Below, one piece after another: positions 441 to 30,228 of a stretch of DNA of 64,000 nucleotides; positions within the stretch are counted from its first letter, which is position 1; each line of letters starts with the position of its first letter. The stretch spans positions 20,587 to 84,586 of the forward strand of contig JAHDQN010000040.1 in the NCBI GenBank assembly GCA_018433775.1, given 5' to 3'. Made by a program: the position numbers and the translations under genes. The notes under the pieces are model-generated. The model searched no databases. It saw only the letters and a list, made by a program, of their open reading frames with translations, and had not been told where the DNA came from. The stretch is from Deltaproteobacteria bacterium (GTDB lineage: Bacteria; Desulfobacterota; Desulfomonilia; UBA1062).

Positions 441-447
441 CTTTTAT

Positions 448-507
448 TCCCAACGTGGGCATCAGCGGCGCGGCTCCGCCGCGTCCGCCTGGATGCCTTG
501 GTTGGAT
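448..507. repeat. attC site 1 (59-base element)
   Basis: The element reads TCCCAAC...cagcggcgcggctccgccgcgtccgcctg...GTTGGAT, with an internal imperfect hairpin. Confidence 0.6.
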
Positions 508-1208: not shown

Positions 1209-1263
1209 CCAACGTACCGATCACCGGCGGCTAAAAGCCGTCCGGTGCATTGGCTGGTTGGGC
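1207..1263. repeat. attC site 2
   Basis: The element reads ATCCAAC gtacc gatcaccggcggctaaaagccgtccggtgcatt ggct GGTTGGGC. It is nearly identical to attC4 in the central stem. Confidence 0.65.
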
Positions 1264-1326
1264 CTTTCGTGCATATATGCAAGGTAATTAATTATAACAT
1301 GCGGGGTTTTATTGCTGTATATAGCT

Positions 1327-2028
1327 TCATTCCTTTTGACTTCTTCTGCTATCTCTTCTGGCTTTTGCAAGTTTAAGCCTTGCTGGCTCGGTATATATTC
1401 TTTCTAGTAGCATAATAGTGAAATCAAGTAAGTCTTCAGCGTCCTCTCGTTTCAGTGTCCCTGCATGTGCACCATCGTTACCATCTTCACGCACACAAGC
1501 AGATAAATCACGTAAGCTCTCTGGAAGTATGCATTGATCAAACATCCATGGTAATCGCAATCCTAAATCACGACGAATACGTTTATTTAAGCCATTTGCA
1601 TCTTCTTCGGGAAGCATTCCCCTTGTAACAATGTCAATACACAAACGAAACATTGTACCAGCAGCATTATTACATCCAACAGCTAGACATGTTGCACCTT
1701 CACGAAAGACCTTTTCCACATCATCTGGTATGTGTTCCGGAGGCTCTGTTGTGGCAGTATCTTTTAAGCTTATGAATCCCTCAATATCAACATAAGTGTT
1801 CACTGCGCCTTTGAAACTTAATAAACCTTTTTCATGTACAAGCTTATAATTACCGTGAACATTTTCTGACAGAACAAATATTGTTGCCCGATGACAATGG
1901 CGACATTTACAGAAGGATTCATACCATTGCTGCCAGTCATATTTTACATACGTAACATGGGCTGCAATAATGTCGAAGGTAATCTTTTGTGCATGACATC
2001 GTGGACAATTTGCTACTAACTCAGCCAT
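1327..2028 (-). CDS. Cassette protein with an N-terminal CxxC...CxxC zinc-ribbon and a C-terminal helical domain resembling DUF4145 (R..GN..AH motif)
   Basis: The motifs are CPRCH...CKCRHCH at the N-terminus and ACVREDGNDGAHAG at the C-terminus. This is a domain guess from memory, not a search result. Confidence 0.5.
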   Translation of the reverse strand: MAELVANCPRCHAQKITFDIIAAHVTYVKYDWQQWYESFCKCRHCHRATIFVLSENVHGNYKLVHEKGLLSFKGAVNTYVDIEGFISLKDTATTEPPEHIPDDVEKVFREGATCLAVGCNNAAGTMFRLCIDIVTRGMLPEEDANGLNKRIRRDLGLRLPWMFDQCILPESLRDLSACVREDGNDGAHAGTLKREDAEDLLDFTIMLLERIYTEPARLKLAKARRDSRRSQKE

Positions 2029-2070
2029 AAAATATTATTCCTTTCACATAAAAAACATTTGTGACTTGAT

Positions 2071-2127
2071 GCCCAACGTAAGGGTCAGCCGCGCGCGTAG
2101 CGCGTCGGCTGCAACCTATGGTTAGGC
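2071..2127. repeat. attC site 3
   Basis: The element reads GCCCAAC gtaag ggtcagccgcgcgcgtagcgcgtcggctgcaacc tatg GTTAGGC. Confidence 0.65.
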
Positions 2128-2130
2128 GAT

Positions 2131-2985
2131 TTAACTAATTGTTAAATTTACTAATTCCTTAAAATCGCTTTCTCTTATTATGCGAAGATACTGCCCCTTT
2201 TTAATCAGCGATTCTGCTTTTCTGTGTTTGGAGCTTTTGTCATGGCCTGCAAGTTTTTTTACATCTTGATCCCCAACTACCAAAATAGTTGTATCCTTCC
2301 TAACCCCGTTAGCTACTGTGCAACCTATTTTTGAAGCCATATCAGCTGCTTCTCGCCGTGGAATATCAAGAGCACCGGTGAAAACTAAGACCTCACCAAA
2401 GAGATATCCCTCTGGATTACCTTCTCTTGAAATGCTGCTTGAAGGATCGATTGGTTGTTCGACACGTCTTAGCCAACCTTGTAAATCGATGCCCGTCTTA
2501 GCAATTGCAGCTAAAAGAATATGTGCAGCAGCTTTTGCATCTTCAAGGGCGTCATGATGCGCAAATTGGTATCCTAAGTTATTGCATACATTTGCAAGGC
2601 CGTACCCACTCCATGCAAATTGTTCCCATGTCCTGCGTGTTACGCGAGCAGAATCTAGCCAAGTACATGAAGGATTGCGAAGGTCATATTTTAAGCAAGC
2701 TTGTTGAATAGCCACTCGATCGAAATGGGTATGACAAACAACAATTCTACCATCTAAGTAATTGTATAAACGACTTGCAGCATCTGGCAGAGTGGGAGAG
2801 CCTTCTACTGTGGATTCATCGATTCCATGTATAGAAATGTTCATCCAATCGAAAAAATCCTCTGGATCGATATATGTCTTCCACTCTTCTTGCAACAATC
2901 CATTTTTGAAGACTGCAAGTCCTATTTGGCAGATTGAAGACATATCAGCATTAGCAGTTTCAAAGTCCAATGCTATAAAGTCCAT
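2131..2985 (-). CDS. DnaQ-like (DEDDh) 3'-5' exonuclease fused to a C-terminal BRCT domain
   Basis: Exonuclease I-III motifs are present: LDFETA, HGI and HHDALEDA. The C-terminal VFTGALD...ILVVGD region looks like BRCT. A GGAGG ribosome-binding site precedes the ATG. Confidence 0.7.
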   Translation of the reverse strand: MDFIALDFETANADMSSICQIGLAVFKNGLLQEEWKTYIDPEDFFDWMNISIHGIDESTVEGSPTLPDAASRLYNYLDGRIVVCHTHFDRVAIQQACLKYDLRNPSCTWLDSARVTRRTWEQFAWSGYGLANVCNNLGYQFAHHDALEDAKAAAHILLAAIAKTGIDLQGWLRRVEQPIDPSSSISREGNPEGYLFGEVLVFTGALDIPRREAADMASKIGCTVANGVRKDTTILVVGDQDVKKLAGHDKSSKHRKAESLIKKGQYLRIIRESDFKELVNLTIS

Positions 2986-2995
2986 AATGCCTCCT

Positions 2996-3052
2996 GCCTA
3001 ACGTGCAGATCACCGGCGGCTGAAAGCCGTCCGGTGCATTTGCGGGTTAGCC
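2996..3052. repeat. attC site 4
   Basis: The element reads GCCTAAC gtgca gatcaccggcggctgaaagccgtccggtgcatt tgcgg GTTAGCC. Confidence 0.65.
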
Positions 3053-3079
3053 AGCCTACCCATATAATTTTATCTGGCA

Positions 3080-3880
3080 TTACAGCGGAAGACAATAAAT
3101 TAGATCTGTATAGCATTTTTCAACCACATTTTTTGGAAAAGGTAAATGTTCGTAATCACTTCCAATTATCCCTTTATTCAAATTCATTTGGTTGTCACAA
3201 AGGATAATTATGTATTTACCAAGGGCTTTAGCATACGATGTCTCACTAAGAATCCACGAGGTGTCTCCGGGTGTAAAGATACAGATAAAAATATCTTGTG
3301 AATGTATTTTTTGGGCCACTTTATCTGGTATATTCTTTGTTTCATAACCACTTCCTTCTTTAACGTCGAATCCGAGACGTCTGAGAAAGGTGTTGAGTTT
3401 GCCTGAAACATCATTTCCGTATTCATCAAACCTATGTGCTAAAAAAATAGACTTCTTTAACCCATACTTTGATACTTTGGCTGAAACATCTTCGCCGGGA
3501 TTACTGGCTTGGAAAAATGATTTTACATGATCATGTATTGAGCTAATAATATCTAGATCATCTGATCTTACACATACTTCAAGACCTGACTTGCGAATAT
3601 TAATTATAGTTGAAAACCCAAGAGATGCATTTTTGCCCCAATAGTAATGTACATATATTGGCAAAGCATTGGGATAAGTTTCAAGCAAACGCATGAACTC
3701 CTGAAAATTTTCAGCGTGAAGTCTTCTGAATTCACCAATATGCAGACTTAAAGAATGTGAGTCTGATTTTGGTTCTTGTGGTTTATATTTATTGATCTTC
3801 AAGTATTCATCAAATTGCCTAAAGGATGATAGTATATCTAAATTACTTGGGTATACAGAATACTCTCTATCTTCTTGCAT
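3080..3880 (-). CDS. Cassette protein with a C-terminal TIR-like domain and an N-terminal domain of unknown function
   Basis: The C-terminal roughly 130 aa show the TIR pattern: IFLAHRFDE...FLRRLGFDV...IFICIFTPG..SWILSETSYAKALGK. Confidence 0.55.
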   Translation of the reverse strand: MQEDREYSVYPSNLDILSSFRQFDEYLKINKYKPQEPKSDSHSLSLHIGEFRRLHAENFQEFMRLLETYPNALPIYVHYYWGKNASLGFSTIINIRKSGLEVCVRSDDLDIISSIHDHVKSFFQASNPGEDVSAKVSKYGLKKSIFLAHRFDEYGNDVSGKLNTFLRRLGFDVKEGSGYETKNIPDKVAQKIHSQDIFICIFTPGDTSWILSETSYAKALGKYIIILCDNQMNLNKGIIGSDYEHLPFPKNVVEKCYTDLIYCLPL

Positions 3881-3922
3881 AAATACTGCCCCCTATGGCT
3901 AACAACTTCCTCTACTGCATAA

Positions 3923-3960
3923 TTGCAGCAAAAGTTGCTATATAGCAACTTTTGCTGCAA
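3923..3960. repeat. 38-bp perfect palindrome at the junction of the cassette array and the chromosome
   Basis: The sequence ttgcagcaaaagttgcta|tagcaacttttgctgcaa has 18-nt arms. It follows an imperfect inverse-core-like GGCTAAC at about 3897-3903. Confidence 0.6.
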
Positions 3961-4311
3961 CATTATGAATTACGAATATACCATGCTCCTCTTTTCGGAA
4001 GACCTTTCTCCTGGGGGGAGAGCTCGTGAGGGCCGTGCAGGAATCAGGGCAGACTCCGTCAGTAGAAGGTGAACGTGAAGATAGAAAATGGTCTCCTCTC
4101 ATTCATTTCATGCATCGACAAGGTCCGGCCGCCATTCCTGGCGTCCGGGCAATAACCTGTGAATACGATATCATTTTTTCCGCGACAAATCCAGATGAAA
4201 GTGAAAATGCTCAAGCCGCACGGGACTGCACCGTTCATGGCCCTGCCGCTCTGTACGGGCGGTCGAGCGGGCTGAACAGACCCCGCCGGGGTTTCCGGAG
4301 GCGTTACAGCC

Positions 4312-6271: not shown

Positions 6272-9200
6272 TTATTGCCGTGCATACAGGTCCTGCAGCG
6301 ACGACACGCCGAAGCCGCCCGCCTGCAGGGACCTGACGGCCTCGAGGCTCGCCCGCGAGGCCGCGACGGTCGTGGCGTAGGGGACGCTGTAGCGGATGGC
6401 GCTGCGGCGAATGTGGTGCGCGTCCTGCGAGGGTTTTCTGCCGATGCTCGTGTTGATGATCAACTGGATCTCGCGGTTCTTGATGTGGTCGACCACGTTG
6501 GGCCGGCCCTCGCTCACCTTGAGCACCACCTCGGCGTCAACGCCGCTCGCCTGCAGGTGCCGCGCGGTGCCCCGGGTGGCGACGATGCGGAAGCCGAGCC
6601 CGGCAAAGCCCTTTGCCACTTCCGTGATCCGGGCCTTGTGCATGTCGTGGACGCTGACGAACACGGTCCCGGAGTCCGGAAGGCCCGAGCCGGCCGCGAT
6701 CTGCGACTTGGCGAAGGCGGCCCCGAACGAGAAGTCCACCCCCATAACCTCGCCCGTCGACTTCATCTCCGGGCCAAGCCCCACGTCCGCGTCGGGAAAG
6801 CGCTGGAACGGAAACACGGCCTCTTTCACCGAGACGTGGGCAGGCACGACCTGCTCGGTGAAACCGAGCTCTTCAAGCGTCCGGCCCAGCATGACCTTGG
6901 TGGCGATCCGGGCCAGGGGCCTGCCGATTGCCTTGCTCACGAAGGGCACGGTCCTCGACGCCCGGGGGTTCACCTCCAGCACGTACACCTCGCCGTCCTT
7001 GACGGCGTACTGGATGTTCATGAGCCCGACCACCCCGATCTCTTTGGCGATCAGCCGGGTCTGCTCCCTGATCGTCTCCCGTATCTTCTCCGGCAGGGTC
7101 GCGGGCGGCAGCACGCACGCGCTGTCTCCGGAGTGGATGCCCGCCTCCTCGATGTGCTCCATGATCCCGCCGATCACCGTGGTTTGGCCGTCGCAGACCG
7201 CGTCCACGTCGACCTCGACCGCGTCCTCCAGAAAGCGGTCGATGAGCACGGCGTTGCCCGGAAAGAGCTTGAACACGCCGGTGATGAAGGTCTTCAGGGC
7301 TTGAGCGTCGTAGATGATCTCCATGGAGCGGCCGCCCAGCACATACGAAGGCCTGACCAGCACCGGGAAGCCGATCCCATCGGCCGCGGCGAGGGCCTCG
7401 TCAACGGTGAAGGCGATGTCGCTCTGCGGCTGCCTGAGATCGAGCTTCTTCACGATCTCGTTGAACCGCTCCCGGTCCTCGGCCCGGTCGATGGCGTCGG
7501 GCTGGGTGCCCAGGATGGTCACGCCCTCGTTCCACAGGTCCCGGGCGAGGTTGAGCGGGGTCTGGCCCCCGAACTGCACGATCACGCCCTCCGGGCTCTC
7601 GGCCCTGATCACGTGCAGCACGTCCTCCAGGGTGAGCGGCTCGAAGTAGAGCTTGTCCGAGATGTCGTAGTCCGTGCTCACGGTCTCGGGGTTGGAGTTG
7701 ATCATGATGCTCTCATAGCCCATCTCGCGCAGCGCGAACGAGGCGTGCACGCAGCAGTAGTCGAATTCGATCCCCTGGCCGATCCGGTTGGGCCCGCCGC
7801 CGATGATCACCACCTTGGGCCGCCCGGACGGCCTTGTCTCGGTCTCGGTCTCGTAGGTGGAGTAGTAGTAGGGCGTATAGGCCTCGAATTCGGCGGCGCA
7901 GGTGTCCACGAGCTTGTACACCGGCACGATTCCCTCGCGGAAACGCAGCCCCCGCACCCCGTCTTCGCCCATGCCCCAGGCCTCGGCCAGGAAGCGGTCG
8001 GAAAAGCCCATCCGCTTGGCCTCTTCCAGCAGCTCTTTTGAGGGCTTGCTGTTTTTGAGCGTGCCCTCGAACTCCACCAGCTCGCCTATGTGATAAAGAA
8101 ACCAGGGGTCGATCCCGGTCATGGCGTGTATCTCGTCCATGCCCATCCCGCTCCTGAGCGCCTCTGCCAGCCAGAACAGCCGGGCCGAGTTGGGATAGGT
8201 GAGCCGCGAGACGATCTCCTTGCGGTCTGCGGCGGCGCCTGCCTCGACCGGGCTGTTCAGGCCGTACCTGCCGGTCTCGAGCGAGCGGAGTGCCTTGCCG
8301 AGCGCCTCCTTGAAGGTGCGGCCGATGGCCATGGTCTCGCCCACGGACTTCATCGAGGTGGTGAGCAGGTCAGGGGTCTCCGGAAACTTCTCGAAGGTCC
8401 AGCGGGGGATCTTGACCACGCAGTAGTCGATGGCCGGCTCGAACGAGGCACAGGTCTCGCGGGTGATGTCGTTGGGGATCTCGTCCAGGGTGTAGCCCAC
8501 GGCCAGCTTGGCAGCGATCTTGGCGATGGGGAAGCCCGTTGCCTTTGACGCCAGGGCCGACGAGCGCGACACCCGGGGGTTCATCTCGATCACCACGATG
8601 TCCCCGTTCTTCGGGTTGACCGCGAACTGGACGTTGGAGCCGCCCGTCTCAACGCCGATCTCGCGCATGACCGCGACCGCGGCGTTGCGCAGATCCTGGT
8701 ACTCCACGTCGGTCAGGGTCTGGGCCGGGGCCACGGTGATGGAGTCGCCCGTGTGCACGCCCATGGGGTCGAGGTTTTCGATGGAGCAGATGATCACCAC
8801 GTTGTCCGCCCGGTCGCGCATGACCTCGAGCTCGTACTCCTTCCATCCGATCACCGACTCCTCGAGCATGATCTCGGTGATCATGCTCGCGTCGAGCCCG
8901 GCCTTTGCCATGACCTCGAGTTCTTCGGGGTTGTAGGCGATCCCGCCGCCGATCCCGCCCAGGGTGAACGAGGGCCGGACGATGACGGGGAAGCCGATCC
9001 GGCGGGCGATGGCAAACACCTCGTCCATGTTCCGGGCAAACCCGCTCTCCGGGACGCGCAGGCCGATGTTTTCCATGGCATGCCTGAACTTCTCGCGGTC
9101 CTCGGCCTTGTGTATGACCTCGGGTGTGGCACCGATCATCTCTACGCCGTACCTGTCGAGCACCCCCATCTCGTGGACCTTTACCGACACGTTCAGGCCG

Positions 9201-9481
9201 GTCTGGCCGCCCAGGGTCGGGAGTATGGCGTCGGGACGCTCCAGCTCGATTATCCTGGCCACCACCTCGGGCGTTATGGGCTCGATGTAGGTCCTGTCAG
9301 CGAGCTCCGGATCGGTCATGATGGTGGCCGGGTTCGAGTTGATGAGCACGACCCGGCAGCCCTCTTCCTTCAGGGCCTTGCAGGCCTGGACGCCCGAGTA
9401 GTCGAACTCGCACGCCTGGGAGATGACAATGGGTCCTGACCCGATGATGAGTATATTCTTCAGATCATTTCGTCGCGGCAT
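6272..9481 (-). CDS. carB: Carbamoyl-phosphate synthase large subunit
   Basis: The 1069-aa product has duplicated ATP-grasp halves and an MGS-like C-terminus. Confidence 0.95.
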
Positions 9482-9758: not shown

Positions 9759-10751
9759 TTATGCGCTCAGCTTCGACCCCGCGGGTGCCGGCACGTCGAC
9801 TTCCCTGATCCTGATGCCTCTGGCTTTGAGGGCCTGCCGGCCGGCCAGCAGGTCCCTGCCGGCGATCTTGTCGAGCACATAGATCAGGTTGCCGCCGCGC
9901 TCGGCGTATATCTGCCCGTACGAGATCGGGATCTCAGGGGAGGGGTCGTCGAGAATCGAGCGGGTGATCGGTTCGAGCTTGCGCTCGCCGTTGGCAAGGA
10001 GCATGACGGTCTTTGCCTTGTACACGAGCTCGGCCCCCATCGAGACGGCATACCGGGGAGAGTCTTTCTCGGTGGCGAAATGGCCGTCGGCCACCGCGTT
10101 GGCGACCGTGTTGCCGTCGAGCTTCACGAGCAGGACATTGCTTCCCTTAAAGGGGATGCCCGACTCATGGAAGGCCACGTGGCCCCTGCCGCCCACGCCG
10201 ATGACCTGCAGGTCGATGCCTCCGGCCTTGCGGATCTTGCGGGCATAGCCGTCCAGGATCTCTTTCCTGATCCACCCCAAATATGCGGAGTCCGGGTTGC
10301 TCCGGATGGCAACCGACTTCCCCTTGTCGGTCCCCCTCTCCTCCCAGTCCTGCGGGTTTGCCTTGAGCTCGGCCACGAGCTTTTTCTGCTCGATCAGCGC
10401 GCCGTAGGGCACGTTGGTCTCGATGAACTTGCCCTTGAGAAGGCTGAAGAACTCCTGAATCATAAAAAATGCATAGCTCTCGGGGTGCATGACGCGGAGC
10501 TGGGCGTTCTCGCCCGGCAGGCCCACGTACTCGTCCAGGTTGAAGCTCCGGCAGCGTTTCGAGTCGAACTCGCCCTGGTTCGCCGCCTGTGCGAGATGCT
10601 TGTAGAGCCCTGTGGGCGAGTTGCCCGTCGCAAGCCCCAGCACGGCCTCCTGCTTCTGTTTCAGCACCTGCTGGATTTTATCCTTGGCAATGTCCGCGGC
10701 AACCTCGCTCATCGAGGCAAAATCATCAGTTACGAAAATCTCGATTCCCAT
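9759..10751 (-). CDS. Glucosamine-6-phosphate deaminase / 6-phosphogluconolactonase family protein (NagB-like)
   Basis: The GLATGNSP motif and a Rossmann-like sugar-phosphate isomerase fold are present. The product is longer than a canonical NagB. Confidence 0.55.
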   Translation of the reverse strand: MGIEIFVTDDFASMSEVAADIAKDKIQQVLKQKQEAVLGLATGNSPTGLYKHLAQAANQGEFDSKRCRSFNLDEYVGLPGENAQLRVMHPESYAFFMIQEFFSLLKGKFIETNVPYGALIEQKKLVAELKANPQDWEERGTDKGKSVAIRSNPDSAYLGWIRKEILDGYARKIRKAGGIDLQVIGVGGRGHVAFHESGIPFKGSNVLLVKLDGNTVANAVADGHFATEKDSPRYAVSMGAELVYKAKTVMLLANGERKLEPITRSILDDPSPEIPISYGQIYAERGGNLIYVLDKIAGRDLLAGRQALKARGIRIREVDVPAPAGSKLSA

Positions 10752-10794: not shown

Positions 10795-12165
10795 TTATGA
10801 GGCTGCGGCCTCGCTCATGCCGAGCACCTTTTCCACGAGTTCCGCCAACTGGGTGCAGTATTTCTCCGTGACGTCCACCGACGGGCCTTCTACCATGACC
10901 CGGCACATGTTCTGGGTCCCGGAGTAGCGGACCAGGACGCGCCCCTGGTCGCCGAGCTCGCTCTCGACCTGGCTGATCGCGTCTCTGAGCTCGGGCACTG
11001 TGGAGATGTCCGGCTTGGTCTTCACGTTGACATTGATGAGCTTCTGCGGGTAGATGTCCATGAGCTTCGCCAGCTCCGAGAGCGGCTTGCCGGTCCTGAC
11101 CATGGCGGCTACGAGCTGCATGGCCGTGAGAATGCCGTCGCCCGTGGTGTGGTGGTCGAGGAAGATGAGGTGCCCCGAGTCCTCGCCGCCGATGACCCCG
11201 CCCATTTTGAGCATGTCCTCGAGCACGTAGCGGTCGCCCACCTTTGCGGCGTGATGGCTGAAACCGTACTTTTTGCAGGCCACCCTCAGCCCCAGGTTGC
11301 TCATGACCGTGCTCACCAGGAGATCGTTCTTGAGCCTGCCCTCTTCCTTGAGTATCCGGGCGCAGATGAGCAGGATCTGGTCCCCGCTGATCTCCTGCCC
11401 CTTCTCGTCGACCGCGATGAGCCGGTCCCCGTCTCCGTCGAACGCCAGGCCCACCGCCGCGCCGGTTTCCAGGACCCGCTTCTTCAGGTCAGCGGTATGC
11501 TGCGAGCCGCACGCGTCGTTGATGTTCAGCCCGTTCGGCGAGTTGTGCAGCACCTCGACATCGGCGCCCAGCTCGGTGAAGGCATCGGGCGCGACCCGGT
11601 ACGTGGCGCCGTTGGCGGTGTCCATGACGATCTTCATCTCCTCCATGGAGAGGTCCCGCGGAAAGGTGTTTTTCAGGAACACCACATACCGGCCGTTCAC
11701 GTCTTCCATCCGCAACGCCCGGCCCATGTCCTTGGAAGGGGGCAGGTGCTTTGCCAGTTTGCTGTTCAGGATGAGGTCCTCGATGGTGTCTTCCTGCTCG
11801 TCCGAGAGCTTGAACCCGTTGCCGCCGAAGATTTTGATCCCGTTGTCCTCGTAGGGGTTGTGCGAGGCCGAGATCACGATGCCCGCGTCGGCCCGCATGC
11901 TGTTGGCGATAAAGGCGATCCCCGGCGTGGGAAGCACGCCGACCAGATAAGGGTTGCCGCCCATGGAGGTGATGCCGGCTTCCAGCGAGCTCTCGAGCAT
12001 ATAGCCCGAGATGCGGGTGTCCTTGCCGATGATGATCCGTGTGCGGTGATGCTCCTTCCTGAGGAGATACGTCACCGCCTGGCCCACCAGGAAGGCGATC
12101 TGCGCGTTCATGGGGTATTTGTTCGCCTCCCCGCGTATTCCGTCCGTACCGAATAGCTTGCCCAT
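10795..12165 (-). CDS. glmM: Phosphoglucosamine mutase
   Basis: GTDGIRG and the active-site SASHNP motif are present. I trimmed the start to the internal ATG, which has an AGGAGG ribosome-binding site. Confidence 0.85.
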   Translation of the reverse strand: MGKLFGTDGIRGEANKYPMNAQIAFLVGQAVTYLLRKEHHRTRIIIGKDTRISGYMLESSLEAGITSMGGNPYLVGVLPTPGIAFIANSMRADAGIVISASHNPYEDNGIKIFGGNGFKLSDEQEDTIEDLILNSKLAKHLPPSKDMGRALRMEDVNGRYVVFLKNTFPRDLSMEEMKIVMDTANGATYRVAPDAFTELGADVEVLHNSPNGLNINDACGSQHTADLKKRVLETGAAVGLAFDGDGDRLIAVDEKGQEISGDQILLICARILKEEGRLKNDLLVSTVMSNLGLRVACKKYGFSHHAAKVGDRYVLEDMLKMGGVIGGEDSGHLIFLDHHTTGDGILTAMQLVAAMVRTGKPLSELAKLMDIYPQKLINVNVKTKPDISTVPELRDAISQVESELGDQGRVLVRYSGTQNMCRVMVEGPSVDVTEKYCTQLAELVEKVLGMSEAAAS

Positions 12166-12212
12166 GTAAAATCCTCCTTTGATCGTGTGTTCAGCTGGAA
12201 ATAATTCTGCCC

Positions 12213-13436
12213 TTAAAACAACTGCAGGCCGGGCATGGCCTGGGAAACCGCCTTGGCGTGTGATGTAACGACGCTTTCCAGCCATGCCGTCCCTTGATCG
12301 GAAACATCCGCGGGCAGACCCTGGATGGTTTCGATGTAACCGTCCCGTCCTGCCTGCATCGCCCTGTTCAGCCCGCCCAGGAACTCATCTTTCAGCGTTT
12401 CCGCGTCTGAACCAGGGATTGTATCCATCTCAAACATCTCTTTGATTTTATCGCTATTTTTTGTGAACCCGTCCCCGAATTGGGGGGCGCGCTTGGCCAT
12501 TGCCTCGAGCCGCTTCAGGCGTTCCTTGCGGGCGAGCGAGAGCTTGTCGAGGAGGCCTGCGTGGATGAGGGGGCCGAACTCGACCGCGTCCAGGAAGGGC
12601 TTGCGCACGTGGACATACCACTCGCGCAGGGCCGCGAGGTTCGCCAGATAGAGGATGTTGTTCTCCACCACGCGCTTGAGGTTCGGGTACAGGGCCGGCT
12701 GATACTCCCTTACTCCGCCCGGGTGCGGCTCGACCGTGATCAGACAGTTGTCGTCCGGGCAGTCCTGCCTGAGCACCGAGCCCGCGGCCACGACGTTGCC
12801 GAACCCCATGCGGACCGGCCCAACGATCCCCCCCTGGCCTCCGAGGAAGATGGGCGGCCGGTTCAGCATCACGCCCCTGGGCACGTCGCCGAGCAGCGAG
12901 GGGGTCGTCTTGTCGCCGTCCGGGGTGAAGTTGAAGTGGATGTACGAGCTCCCCACCTCGCTGTGGTCCTTGCGGCTGGTTCCCCCGGCCATGAGGCAGT
13001 CGCAGAAGTTGATCAGGCTGCCCAGGGTCACGAAGGGGAAGAGTATGGTCTGCTTGAGCCCCACGCAGTGGGCACCGCCCGCCTCCTCCTCCAGGATCGA
13101 ACCCTCGCGGACATGGGCGCCCAGGCCCATGTTGGATCTGTCGAGGAACACCGACTTGCTGAAATAGCCGCCCTTGAGCTCCACGTCGCGGCCGATCTGG
13201 CAGTCCTCGATCGTGACCGGGCCTTCGCGGCCGATCTGCGCGCCCGATGAGATGACGGTCTTCTCGCCGTAGATCCTGCACCCGGGATAGATCCTGACGC
13301 CCTGCGCGGATATCCGCCCGATGTCGACCTCTTCCCCGATATCGAGGGTCAGGGGGTTGGGGAGATCGATCCCCTTCTCGAGCAACTGCACGATCTTCTC
13401 ATGGCATCGCGGCGTTATGTCCATCGGCACCTCCAT
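12213..13436 (-). CDS. Left-handed beta-helix (hexapeptide-repeat) acetyltransferase. It resembles the GlmU C-terminal domain but has no nucleotidyltransferase domain and carries a helical C-terminal extension.
   Basis: Hexapeptide repeats run through the N-terminal roughly 280 aa. The start was trimmed to an internal ATG, either 13436 or 13424, with a GGAGG site. Confidence 0.55.
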   Translation of the reverse strand: MEVPMDITPRCHEKIVQLLEKGIDLPNPLTLDIGEEVDIGRISAQGVRIYPGCRIYGEKTVISSGAQIGREGPVTIEDCQIGRDVELKGGYFSKSVFLDRSNMGLGAHVREGSILEEEAGGAHCVGLKQTILFPFVTLGSLINFCDCLMAGGTSRKDHSEVGSSYIHFNFTPDGDKTTPSLLGDVPRGVMLNRPPIFLGGQGGIVGPVRMGFGNVVAAGSVLRQDCPDDNCLITVEPHPGGVREYQPALYPNLKRVVENNILYLANLAALREWYVHVRKPFLDAVEFGPLIHAGLLDKLSLARKERLKRLEAMAKRAPQFGDGFTKNSDKIKEMFEMDTIPGSDAETLKDEFLGGLNRAMQAGRDGYIETIQGLPADVSDQGTAWLESVVTSHAKAVSQAMPGLQLF

Positions 13437-13498: not shown

Positions 13499-16400
13499 TC
13501 AGATTCTTGAAGGCCGGGATTCCCCGATCCGTTCGAATATCAAGCTCGTGATCGTCTCCACGTCCTCCCCGAGCAGCAGCCTCAGGGGCAGACGCTCGAG
13601 ATACGCGTCGTCCCAGGCGACATTGTATTCGTCGACAAGGTTCCTGAGGTCGTTGTACTTCTCGGCCAGGATCTCCTTCTTGCGTTCGACGTCCAGGTCC
13701 TCGCAATAGTCGACGTGGAGCAGGAGCAGGTGCTCCACGGCCCGCAGGGAGTTCAGGAGCGGGACGATCACGATGGAGGCGTGGTCAGATTTGCCCTCGC
13801 CGGCATAGACGTTGCCGGTGCGGACAATGGTCTTTTTGGTGCCCATGAGTGTCCCGGTCTCGTCGAACCGCGAGCGCATGCCCGCGGCGACACCATGTTT
13901 CCCGATTGTCCGGATGGTCGAGCCCTCGGTGGGCCTCCCCTCATCGTCGAGGTTGCCCACGGCATAGAGGGTGTAGCCGTTGATGCGGCTTATCGCATCC
14001 TGCAGGCGCTTGAGCACGATGCCGCCCCTTGCGGGGATGTTCTCGACCGTGAACGACAGGTCTTCGAGCGCATCGAAGATAACGCCCCGTGGGGCCTCCA
14101 CCCGCCTGCTCGTGCCCACGGTAACGGTCTTGGCCTGGTGCCGGATGGCGTCAACGGGCCGCGAGAGCTCGTCGATCGCCCTGCCCAGGGCGGAATCCAG
14201 CTCGTCCAGGGGCGAGGCGGTCACCCGGTGGGCGCCGAACTCGCTCCAGAAATCCTCGATGGGCAGCTTGCCCACCGCGTACTTCAGAAGCAGGGTGATG
14301 TCGGAAGCGGTTTCCACGTTCATTGACGTGAGCATGCCCGATCTCCTCCAGGAGTTGAACATCGCGGAAAAGTCGTCCACGCAACGGTGCAGGTCGCGGT
14401 CTTCGATGCTCTCGTAGATGGAAAGACCTTTCTTCTCCTGGCAGCGCATGATCTCGGACAGGCTCGACCTGAACGGTTTGAAGGCCCCCGCCTGCGCGTC
14501 GAGACTGCACGCGGCATAGTATCCCCAGATGTGCCCTGCCAGGGTGTTGAGGATCACCGAGAGCGGAAAGCCCGAGCGGGGCACGTGGATCACCGAGTCC
14601 GCTATCGCGTCGAAGCGCTTCTCGCCCTGGTCCGCGATGACCACCACGCTCGATGCATGGGCGTGGAAGATGGCCACGTCCTTGACCACGTCTTCGAGCA
14701 CGATGTCCGGGCTCCCGGCCGCGCACACCAGGATCAGGGGCTCGGACGAGAGATCGATGTGCTTCTTGTCCTCGATCACGTCCGAGGAGATGGTCTTGTA
14801 GCACAGCTCGCTGAGCTTGATCCGGATCTCGTCGGACGCGGTCTTGTTTGCGCCGCTTCCCACCACTGCCCAGTATTTCTTTTTTCTCACCAGGTCCCAT
14901 GCCGAGCTCCTGATCGCCTCGCGCGAGGCGATGACCTCCTGCATGAGCTTAGGCGACTGCTCGATCCGGGAAATCTCCCGGACGATCCTTTCGCGGGAGA
15001 GCGCGCCCATAAGCTGCGCCATGAACAGGGCGAGAATATAGCCCGCGGTGATCTGCGAGTAGAACGCCTTGGTCGATGCCACGGACATCTCGATGTCGCG
15101 GCCGTCGCTCGTGTAGAATACCCCGTCCACCTTTGTGGTGATGTCCGACTGCCTCCGGTTCACGATGGCGATCAGGTGCGCGCCCCGCTCCCTGGCCATG
15201 GTCACGGCCCGGTTGGTGTCCGTGGTGGTGCCCGACTGGGTGATGGCGATCACCAGGCAGTCCGTCATGTCTTCGTCGAGGCAGAACCCGCTCAGATCGG
15301 TGGCCTTACGCGCCAGGACCGAGATAGGCGTGCCCTTCAGGTAGATCGCGAGCGCCTCGGCCACGGCAGCGCCCGCAATGGCCGCAGTGCCCTGACCCAC
15401 CACGTAGATCCGTCTGATCACGCCCGAGACGAGCGCATCGCGCACCGCGGCAGGAACCACGGCCTCGTCCAGGTTGAAGGCCACCCTCCGGCCGCCTTCC
15501 ACCCGGTACTTTCCCCGGATGGTCTTCCGGATCGACTCCGGCGCGTCCAGGATCTCCTTAAGGAGAAAATGGGGGAAGGTCCCGCGGTCGATATCCCGGG
15601 TGGTGATCTCGGCGCGCCGGATATCGCCCTGCCCGAGCTCCAGGGGCCGGCCGTCGTAGTACATGGCCTCGATCCCTCCGAGCCCGCCCCCGCCGGCATT
15701 ATCCAGGATGAAGATCTGGCCCCGGGTGCACTCATCGCCCGGGACGCGCTCCCGCTCGCCGTCCATTTTGATGAATAACGGGGTCTCCTCCACCAGGCCG
15801 TAGACCTCGGAGGAGAAGACATACTGGTTCTCGCAGATGCCCACATAGATGGTCTGTCCGCTTCCCTTTACACCAAGAAATACCCTGCCTGGCTCCAGGT
15901 TGCTCTCCATGGCGATGGCGTGCGAGCCCTCGAAGTCGTTCACGGCCCTCCTGAATGCCTCCTTGAGGTCGTGGCCCTGGCAGAGGTACCGCTCGATCAC
16001 GAGCGGGATGATCTTGGTATCGGTGGTCACGCGCGGGTCGATCCGGCACCCTATAGCCTGCAGGCCTTCCTTGAGCGGGAGATGGTTGTCGATGTCGCCG
16101 TTGAGCACGACATTGATGGCCCAGGTGCCGCTCCCGTAGAAGGGATAATGTTTCCTCGCCGTCTGGAAGTCCCACTGCTCGTTCGATTCCCCGTCCATGG
16201 CGAAGTTGTTGACCGGATGGCAGTTCGTCTCGTTGATGGCGCCCACCGAGGCCCAGCGCGTATGCGCCAGGTACATCTGCGAGTTTGGTGCATGATCCAT
16301 CACCAGACGAAGGATGGGGTCTGCGCTTATGGACGCTCTGAGCGATCTCGTGTTGTCTCCCAGGTCTCCGGTGACGAGCGCGGTCTTGTAGGTGAAAATC

Positions 16401-17230
16401 AGGGCTCCGGGCGAGACGTGGATGGATCCGTCCATCAGGTCTCCGGGAGGGCAGCGCCTCATGAAGAGATCGTAAAGACCTGCAGCCTTAATCCTTTCCA
16501 TCACGTCCTTCATCTCCCGCGGGCCGGGAAAGCAGAACGCGGCCTGCACCCCGCAGGAGTCTCTGCCCCGCACCTCGAGCCGGTCGAGGGCATTGAGGGC
16601 GAAGTTGAGCCGCTGGTACTTCTCGAATGCCGTAAGCGCCAGCTGGCGGGAGTCTGCGCAGAGCGACGCGATCTTTTTCTGGTTCCCGAGCACGTCCTCA
16701 TGAAGCGCCCATGAGATGTCCTTGAGAAGGATCAGGGACCTCATGAGGTTCTCCATGTCGAGGGTGGAGAGCGAGGCCGCCTCCTTTTCCAGGATACGCT
16801 CCTCCTGGTCCACGAATGCGTCCATGTCCGCGCACAGGTTCTCGAGGCGGTCGAAAAGCTCCTTGCGAGCGAGCGTCCACTGGTTCCCGGAACTCTGCTT
16901 CAGACGGTACACGTCCTGTTCGAAAACCCGGAGCTCTTTGGGGTCGAGGTACTCATCCGGCGCGATCTCCCTGCCGAGCACCCTGTTCAGTGCACATGCC
17001 CGCACCTGGTCGAAGTGCAGACCGAGTATACGAAGGATGTCGTCACGTGGTGCATCCTCCCCGCCCCTGACGACCAGGATACCGGCCAGGCCGCACAGGA
17101 GCGTGCAGGGCTGGACAGGGAAAAGTACCACGGACCGGGCCGGGAGGTTCTTCGGCTCGCGTCCGATGTACAACCTCCACTGGGCTGTTTTCTTCATCAT
17201 TGCCCGCACTATCGCCTTCATAGCATCCAT
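13499..17230 (-). CDS. Atypical 1243-aa glutamine--fructose-6-phosphate aminotransferase (GlmS)-like protein
   Basis: Class-II amidotransferase motifs (LCGLAGILVV, RGRDSCG, HTRWAS.G...N.HP) are followed by two SIS domains (TQSGTTTDT). The protein also has a 43-aa N-terminal leader, a roughly 160-aa insertion and a roughly 340-aa C-terminal extension. Confidence 0.65.
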   Translation of the reverse strand: MDAMKAIVRAMMKKTAQWRLYIGREPKNLPARSVVLFPVQPCTLLCGLAGILVVRGGEDAPRDDILRILGLHFDQVRACALNRVLGREIAPDEYLDPKELRVFEQDVYRLKQSSGNQWTLARKELFDRLENLCADMDAFVDQEERILEKEAASLSTLDMENLMRSLILLKDISWALHEDVLGNQKKIASLCADSRQLALTAFEKYQRLNFALNALDRLEVRGRDSCGVQAAFCFPGPREMKDVMERIKAAGLYDLFMRRCPPGDLMDGSIHVSPGALIFTYKTALVTGDLGDNTRSLRASISADPILRLVMDHAPNSQMYLAHTRWASVGAINETNCHPVNNFAMDGESNEQWDFQTARKHYPFYGSGTWAINVVLNGDIDNHLPLKEGLQAIGCRIDPRVTTDTKIIPLVIERYLCQGHDLKEAFRRAVNDFEGSHAIAMESNLEPGRVFLGVKGSGQTIYVGICENQYVFSSEVYGLVEETPLFIKMDGERERVPGDECTRGQIFILDNAGGGGLGGIEAMYYDGRPLELGQGDIRRAEITTRDIDRGTFPHFLLKEILDAPESIRKTIRGKYRVEGGRRVAFNLDEAVVPAAVRDALVSGVIRRIYVVGQGTAAIAGAAVAEALAIYLKGTPISVLARKATDLSGFCLDEDMTDCLVIAITQSGTTTDTNRAVTMARERGAHLIAIVNRRQSDITTKVDGVFYTSDGRDIEMSVASTKAFYSQITAGYILALFMAQLMGALSRERIVREISRIEQSPKLMQEVIASREAIRSSAWDLVRKKKYWAVVGSGANKTASDEIRIKLSELCYKTISSDVIEDKKHIDLSSEPLILVCAAGSPDIVLEDVVKDVAIFHAHASSVVVIADQGEKRFDAIADSVIHVPRSGFPLSVILNTLAGHIWGYYAACSLDAQAGAFKPFRSSLSEIMRCQEKKGLSIYESIEDRDLHRCVDDFSAMFNSWRRSGMLTSMNVETASDITLLLKYAVGKLPIEDFWSEFGAHRVTASPLDELDSALGRAIDELSRPVDAIRHQAKTVTVGTSRRVEAPRGVIFDALEDLSFTVENIPARGGIVLKRLQDAISRINGYTLYAVGNLDDEGRPTEGSTIRTIGKHGVAAGMRSRFDETGTLMGTKKTIVRTGNVYAGEGKSDHASIVIVPLLNSLRAVEHLLLLHVDYCEDLDVERKKEILAEKYNDLRNLVDEYNVAWDDAYLERLPLRLLLGEDVETITSLIFERIGESRPSRI

Positions 17231-17332
17231 TTCCCCCGCGCCGTCGAGTCCTTCCGTCCCGTTTGCACGCAGTACTGCTCGCCCTTCTTAAGTTAGTATG
17301 TATTTTGCAGACAGCAAAAAAACAACTTCTCC

Positions 17333-18493
17333 CTACGAGATGTGCCGCATTCCGGCGGTCAAGCCTGCAGGCGAGCCCATCATTCCAAGAAATTCCCTGA
17401 AGAGATAGCCGGCGTCGTGAGGCCCGGGAGACGCCTCGGGATGATACTGAACGCTGAACGCCCGGTAGGCTGGATACCTGACGCCCTCCAGGGTCTGGTC
17501 GTTGAGATTGACGTGAGTGACCTCGGCATCTTTGGGCAGCGTTTCCGTGACCACGGAAAACCCGTGATTCTGCGAGGTGATCTCCACGCGGCCGGTCAGC
17601 AGGTTCCTCACCGGCTGGTTCACGCCGTGGTGGCCGAACTTGAGCTTCTCGGTCCTGGCGCCGAAGGCCTGGGAGAGTATCTGGTGCCCCAGGCAGATCC
17701 CGAAAATGGGCACCCTGCCCAGCAGGCGCCGGACGGTTTCGATCTCGCAGGCGAGCGGGGCCGGATCGCCCGGACCGTTGGACAGCATGATCCCGTCGGG
17801 CTCAAGCGCCAGGATATCCTCGGCCCGGGTGCGCGAGGGCATCAGAACGACCTGGCACCCCAGGCGCTCCAGGCTTCTGAGGATGTTGTGTTTTGCGCCG
17901 CAGTCGAGCACGACCACACGATGCCCGCTGCCTTTCTGCAGGGGTCCTTCAAGGGGCGCCGCTTTCCCGGACTTCCAGAGATGCGGCCGGGAGCAGGTCA
18001 CCGACGACACGATATCCCTTCCGGTCAGCCCGGGATAGGCGCGCACCTGCTCCAGAAGCTCCGGCACCTTGTCATACCGCGTGGACACGATCCCCCGCAT
18101 GGCGCCCGCGGTCCTGATCCTGCGGGTCAGCGCCCGGGTGTCCACCCCTTCGACCCCGATCCGGCCGAACTCCTCCAGGTAGCTCTGAAGCGTCCCGGTC
18201 GATCTCCAGTTGCTCGGATGGTGCTGATATTCCCTGACCACGAACCCCTTAAGGTGAATGGCGGGGGATTCCCGGTCCTGGTCGTTGATGCCGTAGCTTC
18301 CCATGAGGGGATAGGTCATAACGAGTATCTGCTCGCAATACGACGGATCGGTGAGCGCCTCCTGGTAGCCGGTCATGGCGGTGTTGAACACCACCTCGCC
18401 GCAGGCGTCACCGCCTCCGGCAAAGGCGCGGCCGCGGAAGACCGAACCGTCTTCCAAAACCACGACCGCCGGGCGCTTGTCTCGTGCTGACAT
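17333..18493 (-). CDS. carA: Carbamoyl-phosphate synthase small subunit
   Basis: The CPSase small-subunit N-domain and a class-I amidotransferase domain (GICLGHQ) are present. The start was trimmed to MSARDK, which has a GGAGGAGG site. Confidence 0.9.
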   Translation of the reverse strand: MSARDKRPAVVVLEDGSVFRGRAFAGGGDACGEVVFNTAMTGYQEALTDPSYCEQILVMTYPLMGSYGINDQDRESPAIHLKGFVVREYQHHPSNWRSTGTLQSYLEEFGRIGVEGVDTRALTRRIRTAGAMRGIVSTRYDKVPELLEQVRAYPGLTGRDIVSSVTCSRPHLWKSGKAAPLEGPLQKGSGHRVVVLDCGAKHNILRSLERLGCQVVLMPSRTRAEDILALEPDGIMLSNGPGDPAPLACEIETVRRLLGRVPIFGICLGHQILSQAFGARTEKLKFGHHGVNQPVRNLLTGRVEITSQNHGFSVVTETLPKDAEVTHVNLNDQTLEGVRYPAYRAFSVQYHPEASPGPHDAGYLFREFLGMMGSPAGLTAGMRHIS

Positions 18494-18580
18494 AGAATAC
18501 TCCCCTCCTCCTTCTCCCTTTGCTTCCTTATGCTGTCTGCCTTCTTCGCCTTCCCTGACACTGCAGTGGTAACCAGTCAT

Positions 18581-18717
18581 AGGGTCAGTCACATCATGGG
18601 GTCATCATGGGGTCAGGTCTCAACATATGACACCGGGAGTGTCATATGTTGAGACCTGACCCCGATCATGACCGGGAGTGTCATATGTTGAGACCTGACC
18701 CCGATCATGACCCTGAT
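18581..18717. repeat. Complex repeat: a 13-nt tandem (catcatggggtca x2), a perfect palindrome with 23-bp arms and a cggga loop (18611-18661), and two tandem 39-bp units (gggagtgtcatatgttgagacctgaccccgatcatgacc)
   Basis: Read directly from the sequence between the glnA stop and the carA start. Confidence 0.75.
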
Positions 18718-28707: not shown

Positions 28708-30228
28708 TCAGCTCTTTTTCGCCTTGAACCTGTCGACGTCGATCCCGTATTTCTCCACCTTGTACTGGATGATGCGCTTGGTGGTGCCCAGGACCCGCGC
28801 GGCCTTGCTCTGGTTTCCCTTTGCATCCTTGAGGGCATCGACGATAAGGGAGCGCTCGTAGGCGCCGATGAGGCTGGAGAGCTGGCCCTGCTTCTTCTTC
28901 GCCGGAGCCACCACCTTCATCTGCAGCGAGGGCGGCAGGTGCGTGCTGTCGATGGTGTCGCCGCCCGCGAGCAGCACGGCCCGCTCGATGCAGTTTTCCA
29001 GCTCCCGGACGTTCCCGGGCCAGTGATAGGCGAGGAGCGAGTCGATGGCAGGGGTCGAGATCCGCTTGATGTGTTTGCCGAACTCGTGAGCGTATTTCTC
29101 CACGAAGTAGTCGGCCAGGAGCAGGATATCGCCTCCCCGCTCCTTGAGGGCCGGCATGTAGACCGGAAACACGTTGAGACGGTAGTAGAGGTCGGAGCGG
29201 AAACGCCCCGAGGCCGCGTCCTGCTCCAGGTCGCGGTTCGTGGCGGCGATGATGCGCACGTTGACCTTGACCGTCCGGGTGGTGCCCAGGGGTTGGAACT
29301 GCCGCTCCTGGATCACGCGCAGCAGCTTGGCCTGCGCCAGGGGCGAGAGCTCGCCCACCTCGTCAAGGAAGATGGTGCCCCCGTGTGCCTCCTCGAAACG
29401 GCCCCTCCGGCGCTGGCTCGCACCGGTGAACGCGCCTTTCTCGTGCCCGAAAAGCTCGCTCTCGATCAGGGTGTCGGGCATGGCGGCGCAGTTCACCTCG
29501 ATGAAGGGTCCCGCGGCGCGGGGTGAGTTACGGTGAATGGCCCTGGCCACCAGCTCCTTTCCGGTGCCGGTCTCGCCGTGGATGAGAACCGTGGTGTTGG
29601 AATCCGCGACCTGGGAGATCAGCCCGAAGATCTCCTTCATGCCTTTCGAGTTGCCTACGATCTCGGAGGCCGGCCTCTGGGTCCTGCCCAGGATGTTTTT
29701 CAGCCGCCGGTTCTCTTCTTCGATTGCGCGCGTGTGCACCGCCTTGGCGATCAGGCCCGCCACCTCGGAGAGGTATCGGATCTCGTAGTCCTGGCTGTCG
29801 ACCTGCCGGGCCACCTTGTCGGCGGAGAGCACGCCCACGACCTTGCCGTCGTAGATGATGGGCACGCAGAGGAACGAGAGCTCGGAGCGGTCCAGGAACT
29901 TTCTGGCCCCGGTGCGGTCGAGAAAATGCTCCTCCTTGCCCAGGTTCGCGATCACCATGGGCTTGCCGGTCTGGGCCACCTGGCCCGTAATCCCCTCGCC
30001 CGGTTTGTAGGTGATGTCGAGGCCCTCGATGTCCACACCGTGGGCCAGATCCAGGATCGCCTCCCCCGTGTCCCGGTCGAGGATGGAGATCATGCCGCGG
30101 TCCATCCCGGTCTTCTCGCTCAGAGTCTCGAGCACCTGTTCGAGCTGTTCCCGCAAGTCAAGGGGGGTAGCGAGAATCCGGGCCAGATCGTGGAGAACAT
30201 CCAGGTCTTCGTACTCAAAAAGTGTCAT
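28708..30228 (-). CDS. Sigma-54-dependent transcriptional activator with an N-terminal GAF domain (NifA/Fis family)
   Basis: The AAA+ sigma-54 interaction domain (GETGTGKE, GAFTGA) and a C-terminal Fis-type HTH are present. Confidence 0.85.
   Translation of the reverse strand: MTLFEYEDLDVLHDLARILATPLDLREQLEQVLETLSEKTGMDRGMISILDRDTGEAILDLAHGVDIEGLDITYKPGEGITGQVAQTGKPMVIANLGKEEHFLDRTGARKFLDRSELSFLCVPIIYDGKVVGVLSADKVARQVDSQDYEIRYLSEVAGLIAKAVHTRAIEEENRRLKNILGRTQRPASEIVGNSKGMKEIFGLISQVADSNTTVLIHGETGTGKELVARAIHRNSPRAAGPFIEVNCAAMPDTLIESELFGHEKGAFTGASQRRRGRFEEAHGGTIFLDEVGELSPLAQAKLLRVIQERQFQPLGTTRTVKVNVRIIAATNRDLEQDAASGRFRSDLYYRLNVFPVYMPALKERGGDILLLADYFVEKYAHEFGKHIKRISTPAIDSLLAYHWPGNVRELENCIERAVLLAGGDTIDSTHLPPSLQMKVVAPAKKKQGQLSSLIGAYERSLIVDALKDAKGNQSKAARVLGTTKRIIQYKVEKYGIDVDRFKAKKS

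Follow-up and report, generated by a model that had tools for sequence, protein, structure and literature searches.

A long GlmS-like protein with a leader, an internal catalytic tail and additional predicted modules in uncultured Desulfomonilia

The open reading frame and its homologues

The stretch of DNA analyzed here (64,000 nucleotides, termed the window) belongs to contig JAHDQN010000040.1 of a Deltaproteobacteria bacterium assembly (GCA_018433775.1). On the minus strand at 13499..17230, an open reading frame (ORF) encodes a GlmS-like protein of 1243 amino acid residues counted from the first ATG, hereafter the long GlmS. It comprises a leader, a class-II glutaminase domain interrupted by insertions, two SIS domains, and a C-terminal region in which the catalytic tail of GlmS is an internal loop. 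The sequence and the structural models suggest that this is probably a genuine GlmS, most likely the cell's glutamine:fructose-6-phosphate amidotransferase and thus the first enzyme of UDP-N-acetylglucosamine (UDP-GlcNAc) synthesis, with a leader that is removed by the protein itself and extra modules that are regulatory. An earlier note, made from the DNA letters, had described the ORF together with its leader, large insertion and C-terminal region, and all of these are present.

The sequence at the 5′ side of the ORF reads GGGGGAA-ATG-GAT-GCT-ATG. An alternative start at Met4 (17221) yields 1240 residues and is better spaced from the GGGGGAA ribosome-binding site than the first ATG; the NCBI entries of close relatives begin at the equivalent of Met4 (1240 residues). 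These relatives carry only the name "SIS domain-containing protein".

A protein search yielded more than 115 full-length homologues of 1200-1293 residues with 52-91% sequence identity, and relatives turned up in 380 species genomes when a single genome of each species was scanned. The best 80 of these 380, to which the locus counts given below as n/80 refer, are all metagenome-assembled genomes (MAGs) labelled Desulfomonilia, Syntrophales, Desulfobacterales and similar, the closest being the MAGs LM3-B1m (92%) and Phox-21 (84%). Residue conservation counts (116/116) refer to the alignment of the leader-bearing family, and other features were scored in 86-116 homologues. Every named feature is conserved across this set and is therefore not attributable to chance.

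Glutaminase and SIS domains

Pfam matches to the ORF comprise one SIS domain and GATase_6/7. The class-II (N-terminal nucleophile, Ntn) glutaminase domain spans residues 46 to ~545 (15596..17095, minus strand), as defined by Pfam GATase_6, Foldseek and residue mapping. AlphaFold2 (AF2) models were calculated in two separate pieces, residues 1-560 and 905-1243, from 86-sequence alignments. The N-terminal model has a mean predicted local distance difference test score (pLDDT) of 85, and its best Foldseek matches are the glutaminase domains of GlmS and of the eukaryotic enzyme GFAT (E 6.5e-12; template modelling score 0.74 to PDB 1xff), followed by PurF. The two SIS (isomerase) domains occupy residues ~560-913 (14492..15553, minus strand), as shown by Pfam SIS, alignment with PDB 1jxa and the residue map. 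Among solved structures the best match is E. coli GlmS (PDB 1jxa), of which residues 93-588 align with residues 372-907 at E 9e-25. The NCBIfam glmS models align to residues 312-911 with 219-245 bits. The GlmS-homologous core stops at about residue 913, leaving ~330 residues.

For residue mapping, E. coli GlmS was added to the family alignment, where its segments MCGIVGAIAQR and ILLEGLRRLEYRGYDSAGL align with residues 45-55 and 210-228, respectively. The glutaminase residues Cys1, Arg26, Asp29, Arg73, Trp74, His86, Asn98/Gly99 and Asp123 of E. coli GlmS correspond to C46, R221, D224, R325, W326, H338, N377/G378 and D404, so that the complete Arg26 to Asp123 set is present, each residue being invariant (116/116). 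The same holds for the isomerase half, in which Thr302, Gln348/Ser349, Thr352, Ser401, Lys485, Glu488, His504 and Lys603 correspond to T615, Q665/S666, T669, S719, K805, E808, H824 and K1034 (116/116 for each). Both SIS domains thus retain their fructose 6-phosphate (Fru-6-P) and isomerase residues (T615, T664-Q-S666, T669, S719, K721, K805, E808 and H824). The only changes from E. coli GlmS in the sugar-phosphate site are Ser303 to Ala616 and Ser347 to Thr664, both of them invariant and conservative.

The glutaminase domain is interrupted by several insertions. Insertion A (residues 56-209; 16604..17065, minus strand) is a helical segment of ~150 residues located between strand β1 and helix α1. 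AF2 predicts helices at 97-112, 114-120, 123-153, 156-191 and 199-218, with pLDDT mostly above 90 across residues 65-218. The segment is also a constant feature of a set of 54 distant, near-full-length family representatives (mostly 33-45% identity) that were aligned with the query: it measures 120-177 residues in 53 of them, the exception (77 residues) being an N-terminally truncated sequence. The RGxDSxG box had been placed by the earlier note about 160 rather than about 20 residues beyond the nucleophile, after a predicted helical insertion. Both statements hold: RGRDSCG lies at residues 221-227, 175 residues past the Cys compared with 25 in E. coli GlmS, and the predicted helices are confident and conserved in homologues. 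Insertion B (residues 232-295; 16346..16537, minus strand) takes the place of a short hairpin in E. coli GlmS. The family alignment with E. coli GlmS also delineates insertion C (residues 340-366) and a short insert at residues ~511-526. Among the 54 distant members and the query, the length of insertion C follows no consistent pattern with respect to the presence of a leader.

The leader and the nucleophile Cys46

As defined by alignments, the leader comprises residues 1-45 (17096..17230, minus strand) and ends immediately ahead of Cys46. The Cys46 codon, tgc (17093..17095, minus strand), encodes the homologue of the GlmS Cys1 nucleophile, and a Cys occupies this position in all 116 sequences. 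In GlmS the catalytic Cys directly follows the initiator Met; here it is residue 46, within the segment LLCGLAGILVV, which had correctly been noticed near residue 47 instead of at position 2. Forty-five residues thus stand immediately ahead of the nucleophile Cys in an Ntn glutaminase fold, the organization seen in MEROPS C44-type precursors.

The leader carries the motif W18..G23-R-x-P26..P30..S33-[IV]-V-h-F37-P38 in the alignments, and tblastn matches in a clade of 43% identity begin at residue 20. The AF2 model of the leader contains a helix (residues 2-15) and two strands (residues 19-22 and 33-38) with pLDDT values of 59-71. Pfam gave no match to the leader and insertion A even at E ≤ 10, other than sub-threshold noise. 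The residue that precedes the Cys varies among relatives (L, F, C, Y, H, R, P, S or T), and hence no alternative start explains the Cys position. A hidden start just before the Cys was rejected on this account, the residue at -1 often being one that no start codon encodes, as well as for the lack of a ribosome-binding site and the conservation of the leader. Inspection likewise led to the rejection of LLCG as part of a signal peptide or lipobox: a hydrophobic h-region is absent, and at position -1 the sequences have L, F, C, Y or H, not G, A or S.

The internal catalytic tail and the C-terminal modules

The catalytic C-terminal tail of GlmS is kept as an internal loop, VDAIRHQAKTVTVG, at residues 1026-1039, to which the E. 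coli C-terminal tail VDQPRNLAKSVTVE aligns, and which includes Lys1034, the equivalent of E. coli Lys603. The internalized tail as a whole, VDAIRHQAKTVTVGTSR, spans residues 1026-1042 (14105..14155, minus strand) on the basis of the alignments and the residue map. Its motif is near-invariant down to 33% identity. The decapeptide containing Lys603 is a free C-terminus in GlmS; in the long GlmS it is preceded by a 112-residue insertion and followed by ~200 residues. The insertion (residues 914-1025; 14156..14491, minus strand) follows the last SIS helix, leads up to the catalytic tail and is predicted to form a four-helix bundle. The residues that follow the tail (1043-1243; 13502..14104, minus strand) are predicted to form an α/β domain, tentatively GAF-like in fold.

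The C-terminal model (residues 905-1243) has a mean pLDDT of 90, with helices up to residue ~1038 and then five strands flanked by helices; a GAF fold has five or six antiparallel strands, with terminal helices packed against the sheet. Conserved elements of the domain are S1120-R1121, G1130-T-K1132 and the hairpin Y-A-G-x-G-[KR]-S-D (residues 1142-1149); its invariant polar residues could form a candidate anion-binding site. A Foldseek search of the model against the PDB returned nothing below E 0.01, and its list of weak matches is rich in GAF, PAS and IclR-C sensor folds. Pfam applied to the bundle and the C-terminal domain at E ≤ 10 gave only sub-threshold noise (including DUF6082 and DUF4277), and a PDB sequence profile search with the C-terminal module was empty. 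Because no Foldseek match falls below E 0.01 and neither Pfam nor the PDB profile search gives a match, the domain is tentatively described from its model as GAF-like in fold, and is not called a member of the GAF family. The earlier note had described this region as an extension of roughly 340 residues of unknown fold. The lack of a match to any sequence family bears this out, although the region is not simply an appended domain, as it holds the GlmS C-tail. The internal tail had been overlooked, as had the leaderless relatives described below.

The long GlmS family and the origin of the leader

A profile of residues 910-1243 matched 532 clusters among 1.84 billion representatives. The 150 listed of these 532 clusters were inspected; every near-full-length match (1077-1277 residues) carries the module at its C-terminus, and the others look like fragments. 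Among the listed matches the module is therefore specific to the long GlmS family. Four listed proteins of 335-345 residues (P0126, P0139, P0186 and P0218) consist of the C-terminal module alone, starting ~14 residues ahead of it, and could be split genes or gene-calling fragments.

About 40 of the 54 distant members start with MCG[IVLF] like an ordinary GlmS, and these keep insertions A and B, the bundle, the tail motif and the C-terminal domain. Their identity to the query is 33-43%. Leaders of 17-71 residues are present in 11 of the 54. The MAG sources of the named Met-Cys members are Planctomycetota, Candidatus Xenobia and Candidatus Schekmanbacteria, again under the NCBI name "SIS domain-containing protein". 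In a rough neighbor-joining distance tree rooted on E. coli GlmS, all leader-bearing sequences fall into one derived clade (30 of its 31 tips have a leader) and the Met-Cys forms are basal. As the more distant, basal members start with Met-Cys-Gly and possess all of the remaining extra modules, the leader represents a derived addition in a single clade. Judged from these sequences, it was thus apparently gained once, by an enzyme that already used an N-terminal Cys, and the glutaminase residues have been invariant since. The long GlmS family, with proteins of ~1135-1290 residues, is large, common in uncultured bacteria and so far uncharacterized.

Genomic context

The long GlmS gene is part of a minus-strand block in the order glutamate-synthase subunits, glnA, carA, long GlmS, a left-handed β-helix (LbH) gene, glmM, a nagB-like gene, carB and pyrG, an order that recurs in nine related MAG loci. 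The block consists of users of glutamine or ammonia, and the four amino-sugar genes separate carA (17333-18592) from carB (6272-9481).

The gene immediately downstream (12213..13430, minus strand) encodes an LbH protein of 405 residues whose only resemblance to GlmU is to its acetyltransferase half (~52 bits). A uridylyltransferase domain is missing and a C-terminal extension is present; the sequence has no match in the PDB and none of significance in Pfam. The LbH gene is the commonest neighbor of the long GlmS, adjacent in 34/80 loci, which suggests a split GlmU or a dedicated partner. The next gene, glmM (10795..12285, minus strand), encodes phosphoglucosamine mutase (TIGR01455, 586 bits); its true start is probably Met41, near 12165. 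It adjoins the long GlmS in 26/80 loci, and also in three loci with leaderless members (L081, L082 and L087). The last amino-sugar gene (9759..10751, minus strand; 16/80 loci) encodes a NagB-like protein of 330 residues from the glucosamine-6-phosphate deaminase family, whose match to the deaminase is split by an insertion of ~50 residues. In other lineages, the orders long GlmS-glmM-LbH or LbH-long GlmS are seen. A genomic link to the UDP-GlcNAc genes glmM and glmU is thus evident. In a Desulfobacterales clade (L057, L062, L064, L072 and L079), genes for a penicillin-binding protein transpeptidase, a DegT/DnrJ/EryC1 aminotransferase and an iron-containing alcohol dehydrogenase lie directly upstream and replace glmM and LbH.

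On three independent contigs with Met-Cys members, the order is rpsD-rpoA-rplQ-truA-rplM-rpsI-glmM-[long GlmS], the leaderless long GlmS being located at 8001-11735 of L081, 7001-10612 of L082 and 6001-9408 of L087. On L081 and L082 acpS-nnr-alr come next, and L081 continues with tsaE-tsaB-rimI-tsaD-groES-groEL; L087 ends just past the gene. This slot mirrors the M. tuberculosis order from Rv3443c to Rv3417c, with glmS (Rv3436c) at that place. Another Met-Cys member adjoins genes for UbiA and for an FAD-oxidase and a short-chain dehydrogenase, the latter two read as DprE1- and DprE2-like.

As the earlier note had advised, a canonical glmS was sought elsewhere; none was present in the 64-kb window or in the ~1.3 Mb of flanking sequence of the 80 loci. 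Nor does any Rfam family, the glmS ribozyme included, reach its gathering score anywhere in the window. Between carA and the long GlmS (17231-17332) lies an AT-rich element, GTTGTTTTTTT..TCTGCAAAATACATACTAACTTAA, that is conserved upstream of the gene in L001, L003, L005, L039 and L040, and whose core, ATACATACTA, is kept in more distant loci as well. Its sequence suggests an internal promoter that serves the amino-sugar genes. Inspection of the same spacer led to the rejection of a sigma-54 promoter, as the spacing does not fit.

Further along the window, a 929-residue transaldolase/phosphoglucose-isomerase fusion, a source of Fru-6-P, is encoded at 43633-46422 (minus strand), a GlnD-type PII uridylyltransferase at 34817-37300 (plus strand) and a GAF-sigma54 activator at 28708-30228 (minus strand). 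Together these genes mark the region as a nitrogen-control neighborhood. Positions 1-4000, next to pyrG, have a GC content of 39% compared with ~61% elsewhere in the window and look like a foreign island. The genes there are all on the minus strand and encode two proteins with no Pfam match (462-1208 and 3080-3880), a DUF4145 protein (1327-2028) and an RNase_T-type exonuclease (2131-2985).

Proposed function and alternatives

That the ORF encodes a working GlmS is strongly, albeit indirectly, supported by sequence comparison. Several observations nevertheless weigh against the proposed reading of a GlmS with a self-removed leader and regulatory modules. The identity to E. coli GlmS is only ~25%, and the scores lie below the family cut-offs (219 versus 418 bits for TIGR01135 and 245 versus 381 bits for NF001484). 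The leader sequence is itself conserved, more than a throw-away propeptide needs, and may stay attached or bound; around the scissile position (residues 41-49) the AF2 pLDDT is below 50, and the model there is not confident. The NagB-like enzyme, encoded in the same block and orientation, would oppose GlmS in a futile cycle if both are active. The search for a canonical glmS covered the window and the flanks of the 80 loci. Finally, the GAF resemblance is modest (85-96 aligned residues at Foldseek E ≥ 0.01), and Pfam GAF families (PF01590, PF13185 and relatives) give no match to residues 1041-1243 even at E ≤ 10.

If the leader were kept, Cys46 would never become N-terminal, and the glutaminase would be silent or conditional. 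The protein might then use free ammonia, act as an isomerase/deaminase on glucosamine 6-phosphate (GlcN-6-P) and Fru-6-P, or serve as a regulator. The leader's conserved motifs and predicted secondary structure, which are not typical of disposable propeptides, speak for this alternative, as do the adjoining NagB-like and ammonia-assimilation genes. It is nonetheless unlikely: all 116 leader-bearing sequences have the same glutamine-binding and oxyanion-hole residues, which is hard to reconcile with a dead glutaminase, Trp326 at the ammonia-channel gate and the tail are invariant as well, and the ancestral state of the family is Met-Cys. Of the two options offered earlier for the displaced Cys, a propeptide therefore fits better than an inactive glutaminase, given the invariant residues and the Met-Cys-Gly start of the basal relatives.

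Quite improbable is a second alternative, a glutamine-dependent aminotransferase for another ketose phosphate that feeds a specialized amino sugar rather than UDP-GlcNAc. The low identity to GlmS, the score under the equivalog cut-off, the invariant Ser303 to Ala and Ser347 to Thr changes in the sugar-phosphate site and, in the Desulfobacterales clade, the neighboring DegT-type sugar aminotransferase and iron-containing alcohol dehydrogenase would be consistent with such an activity. However, all remaining residues of the sugar site are identical to those of GlmS; glmM, whose product acts on GlcN-6-P, is a recurrent neighbor in unrelated gene orders; the gene follows rplM-rpsI-glmM in L081, L082 and L087, the glmS slot of M. 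tuberculosis; and no canonical glmS appears in the window or flanks. The different sugar-aminating enzyme that the earlier note had entertained is accordingly less likely, with a sugar-phosphate site near-identical to that of GlmS and glmM adjacent in unrelated orders.

An artefact, be it a frameshift or assembly fusion of separate genes (which the earlier note had allowed for) or a mis-called start with the real one just ahead of the Cys, has as its only two supports the unusual length and the CTG codon of Leu45, and is refuted by the comparative sequence data: the uninterrupted architecture and domain order are kept in hundreds of independent assemblies, with the more than 115 full-length relatives and 380 species genomes excluding a fusion, protein-level conservation of the leader extends to relatives of 43% identity, the position before the Cys is often taken by a residue that no start codon encodes (F, C, Y, H, R, P, S or T), and no ribosome-binding site precedes codon 45.

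Proposed mechanism

In class-II amidotransferases the N-terminal Cys is the nucleophile, and the ammonia channel of GlmS is built from Trp74 and the C-tail after both substrates have bound (PMC7948480). Self-processing class-II precursors are known, namely PurF and glutamate synthase (MEROPS C44; PMC5753285). On the proposed reading of the long GlmS, the primary translation product would be a zymogen, activated as a glutaminase when the bond between Leu45 and Cys46 is cut. The protein would probably process itself, like the precursors of PurF and GltB. Class-II amidotransferases rely on the free α-amino group of the N-terminal Cys. Since the class uses a free N-terminal Cys and the glutaminase residues are invariant in the leader clade, leader cleavage is most likely, a conclusion that follows from enzyme-family chemistry and phylogeny. 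The sequence conservation of the leader stands out as the chief peculiarity; once cleaved, the leader may stay bound, much like the chains of other Ntn hydrolases, or it may be regulatory.

Both ends of the tail, which would close the sugar site and seal the ammonia channel, are anchored in extra modules. Ligand binding or oligomerization is most likely coupled to tail closure through insertion A, the four-helix bundle and the GAF-like domain. According to the models, closure would be governed by the flanking bundle and GAF-like domain, perhaps with a contribution from insertion A. Such an arrangement would provide built-in allosteric control where no glmS ribozyme is seen in the 64-kb window. 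A doubly gated valve is a more tentative, indeed doubtful, elaboration: a zymogen leader would be autoproteolytically removed or displaced, and a metabolite-binding GAF-like domain would move the tail via the bundle, the ligand conceivably being an anionic signal of nitrogen or cell-wall status, for example UDP-GlcNAc, GlcN-6-P or 2-oxoglutarate. Such a valve, if real, would give many uncultured phyla control at the protein level in place of the glmS ribozyme or the GlmY/GlmZ small RNAs.

GlmS gates the entry to peptidoglycan and other amino-sugar synthesis, and its regulation relies on a ribozyme in Gram-positives, on small RNAs in enterobacteria and on feedback inhibition in eukaryotes. Canonical GlmS is catalytic at both of its ends, the N-terminal Cys and the C-terminal tail, and the long family departs from it at both, with a leader before the Cys in one clade and a tail buried within a ~330-residue add-on family-wide. 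If active, the long GlmS would exemplify a GlmS tail working as an internal loop and a new allosteric or zymogen mode of hexosamine-pathway control. Some Thermodesulfobacteriota, Planctomycetota, Xenobia and Schekmanbacteria, and possibly actinobacteria-like lineages, the latter judged from gene neighborhoods only, may have the long form as their sole GlmS. The current annotations, "SIS domain-containing protein" or plain GlmS, do not describe the long family. It is not a new kind of system, and is of relevance to specialists in amidotransferases and in the cell wall.

Comparison with known systems

The earlier note had allowed that the homologue might belong to a well-characterized long GlmS family. 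No such family was found: the NCBIfam glmS models score below cut-off, and a search of a literature library for a long, GAF-fused, internal-tail or propeptide-bearing GlmS returned nothing relevant. To our knowledge, no GlmS-type enzyme with a propeptide has been reported.

The eukaryotic enzymes GFAT1 and GFAT2 (PDB 6r4e and others) share with the long GlmS an extra insertion in the glutaminase domain, which is regulatory, and are subject to allosteric feedback (PMC7948480). In contrast to the long GlmS, the GFAT insertion is a disordered loop of ~46 residues located elsewhere, there is no leader and no extra C-terminal domain, and the tail is C-terminal.

B. subtilis PurF and GltB (MEROPS C44) likewise carry a propeptide before the catalytic Cys, whose removal is required for their activity (PMC5753285). 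PurF structures are also among the fold matches to the N-terminal model. The propeptides of PurF and GltB comprise 11 and ~40 residues, respectively. Unlike these, the leader of the long GlmS shows sequence conservation along with predicted secondary structure, and its cleavage is inferred.

The C-terminal domain differs from GAF sensor domains (DevS GAF-B, 2vks; PDE2A, 3ibj; PtsP GAF, 3trc) in lacking sequence similarity to them, with Foldseek matches that are not significant. The gene differs from ribozyme-controlled glmS genes in that Rfam identifies no ribozyme in the 64-kb window.

The closest system is E. coli GlmS (PDB 1jxa, 2j6h, 4amv; TIGR01135), with which the long GlmS shares the class-II glutaminase and two SIS domains, the Lys603 tail motif and the Trp74 gate; the gene is also linked to glmM and a GlmU-like gene, as is that of GlmS. 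The long form differs in being twice as long, with ~25% identity and a score below the family cut-off, in the 45-residue leader ahead of the nucleophile in this clade, and in the ~150-residue helical insertion after strand β1 and the further insertions. The tail that constitutes the C-terminus of E. coli GlmS is internal in the long form and followed by ~200 residues. Judged by its sequence, the long GlmS thus departs from the formal definition of GlmS in three respects, the family cut-off, the Cys at position 2 and the free C-terminal tail, while keeping all of the residues of the chemistry.

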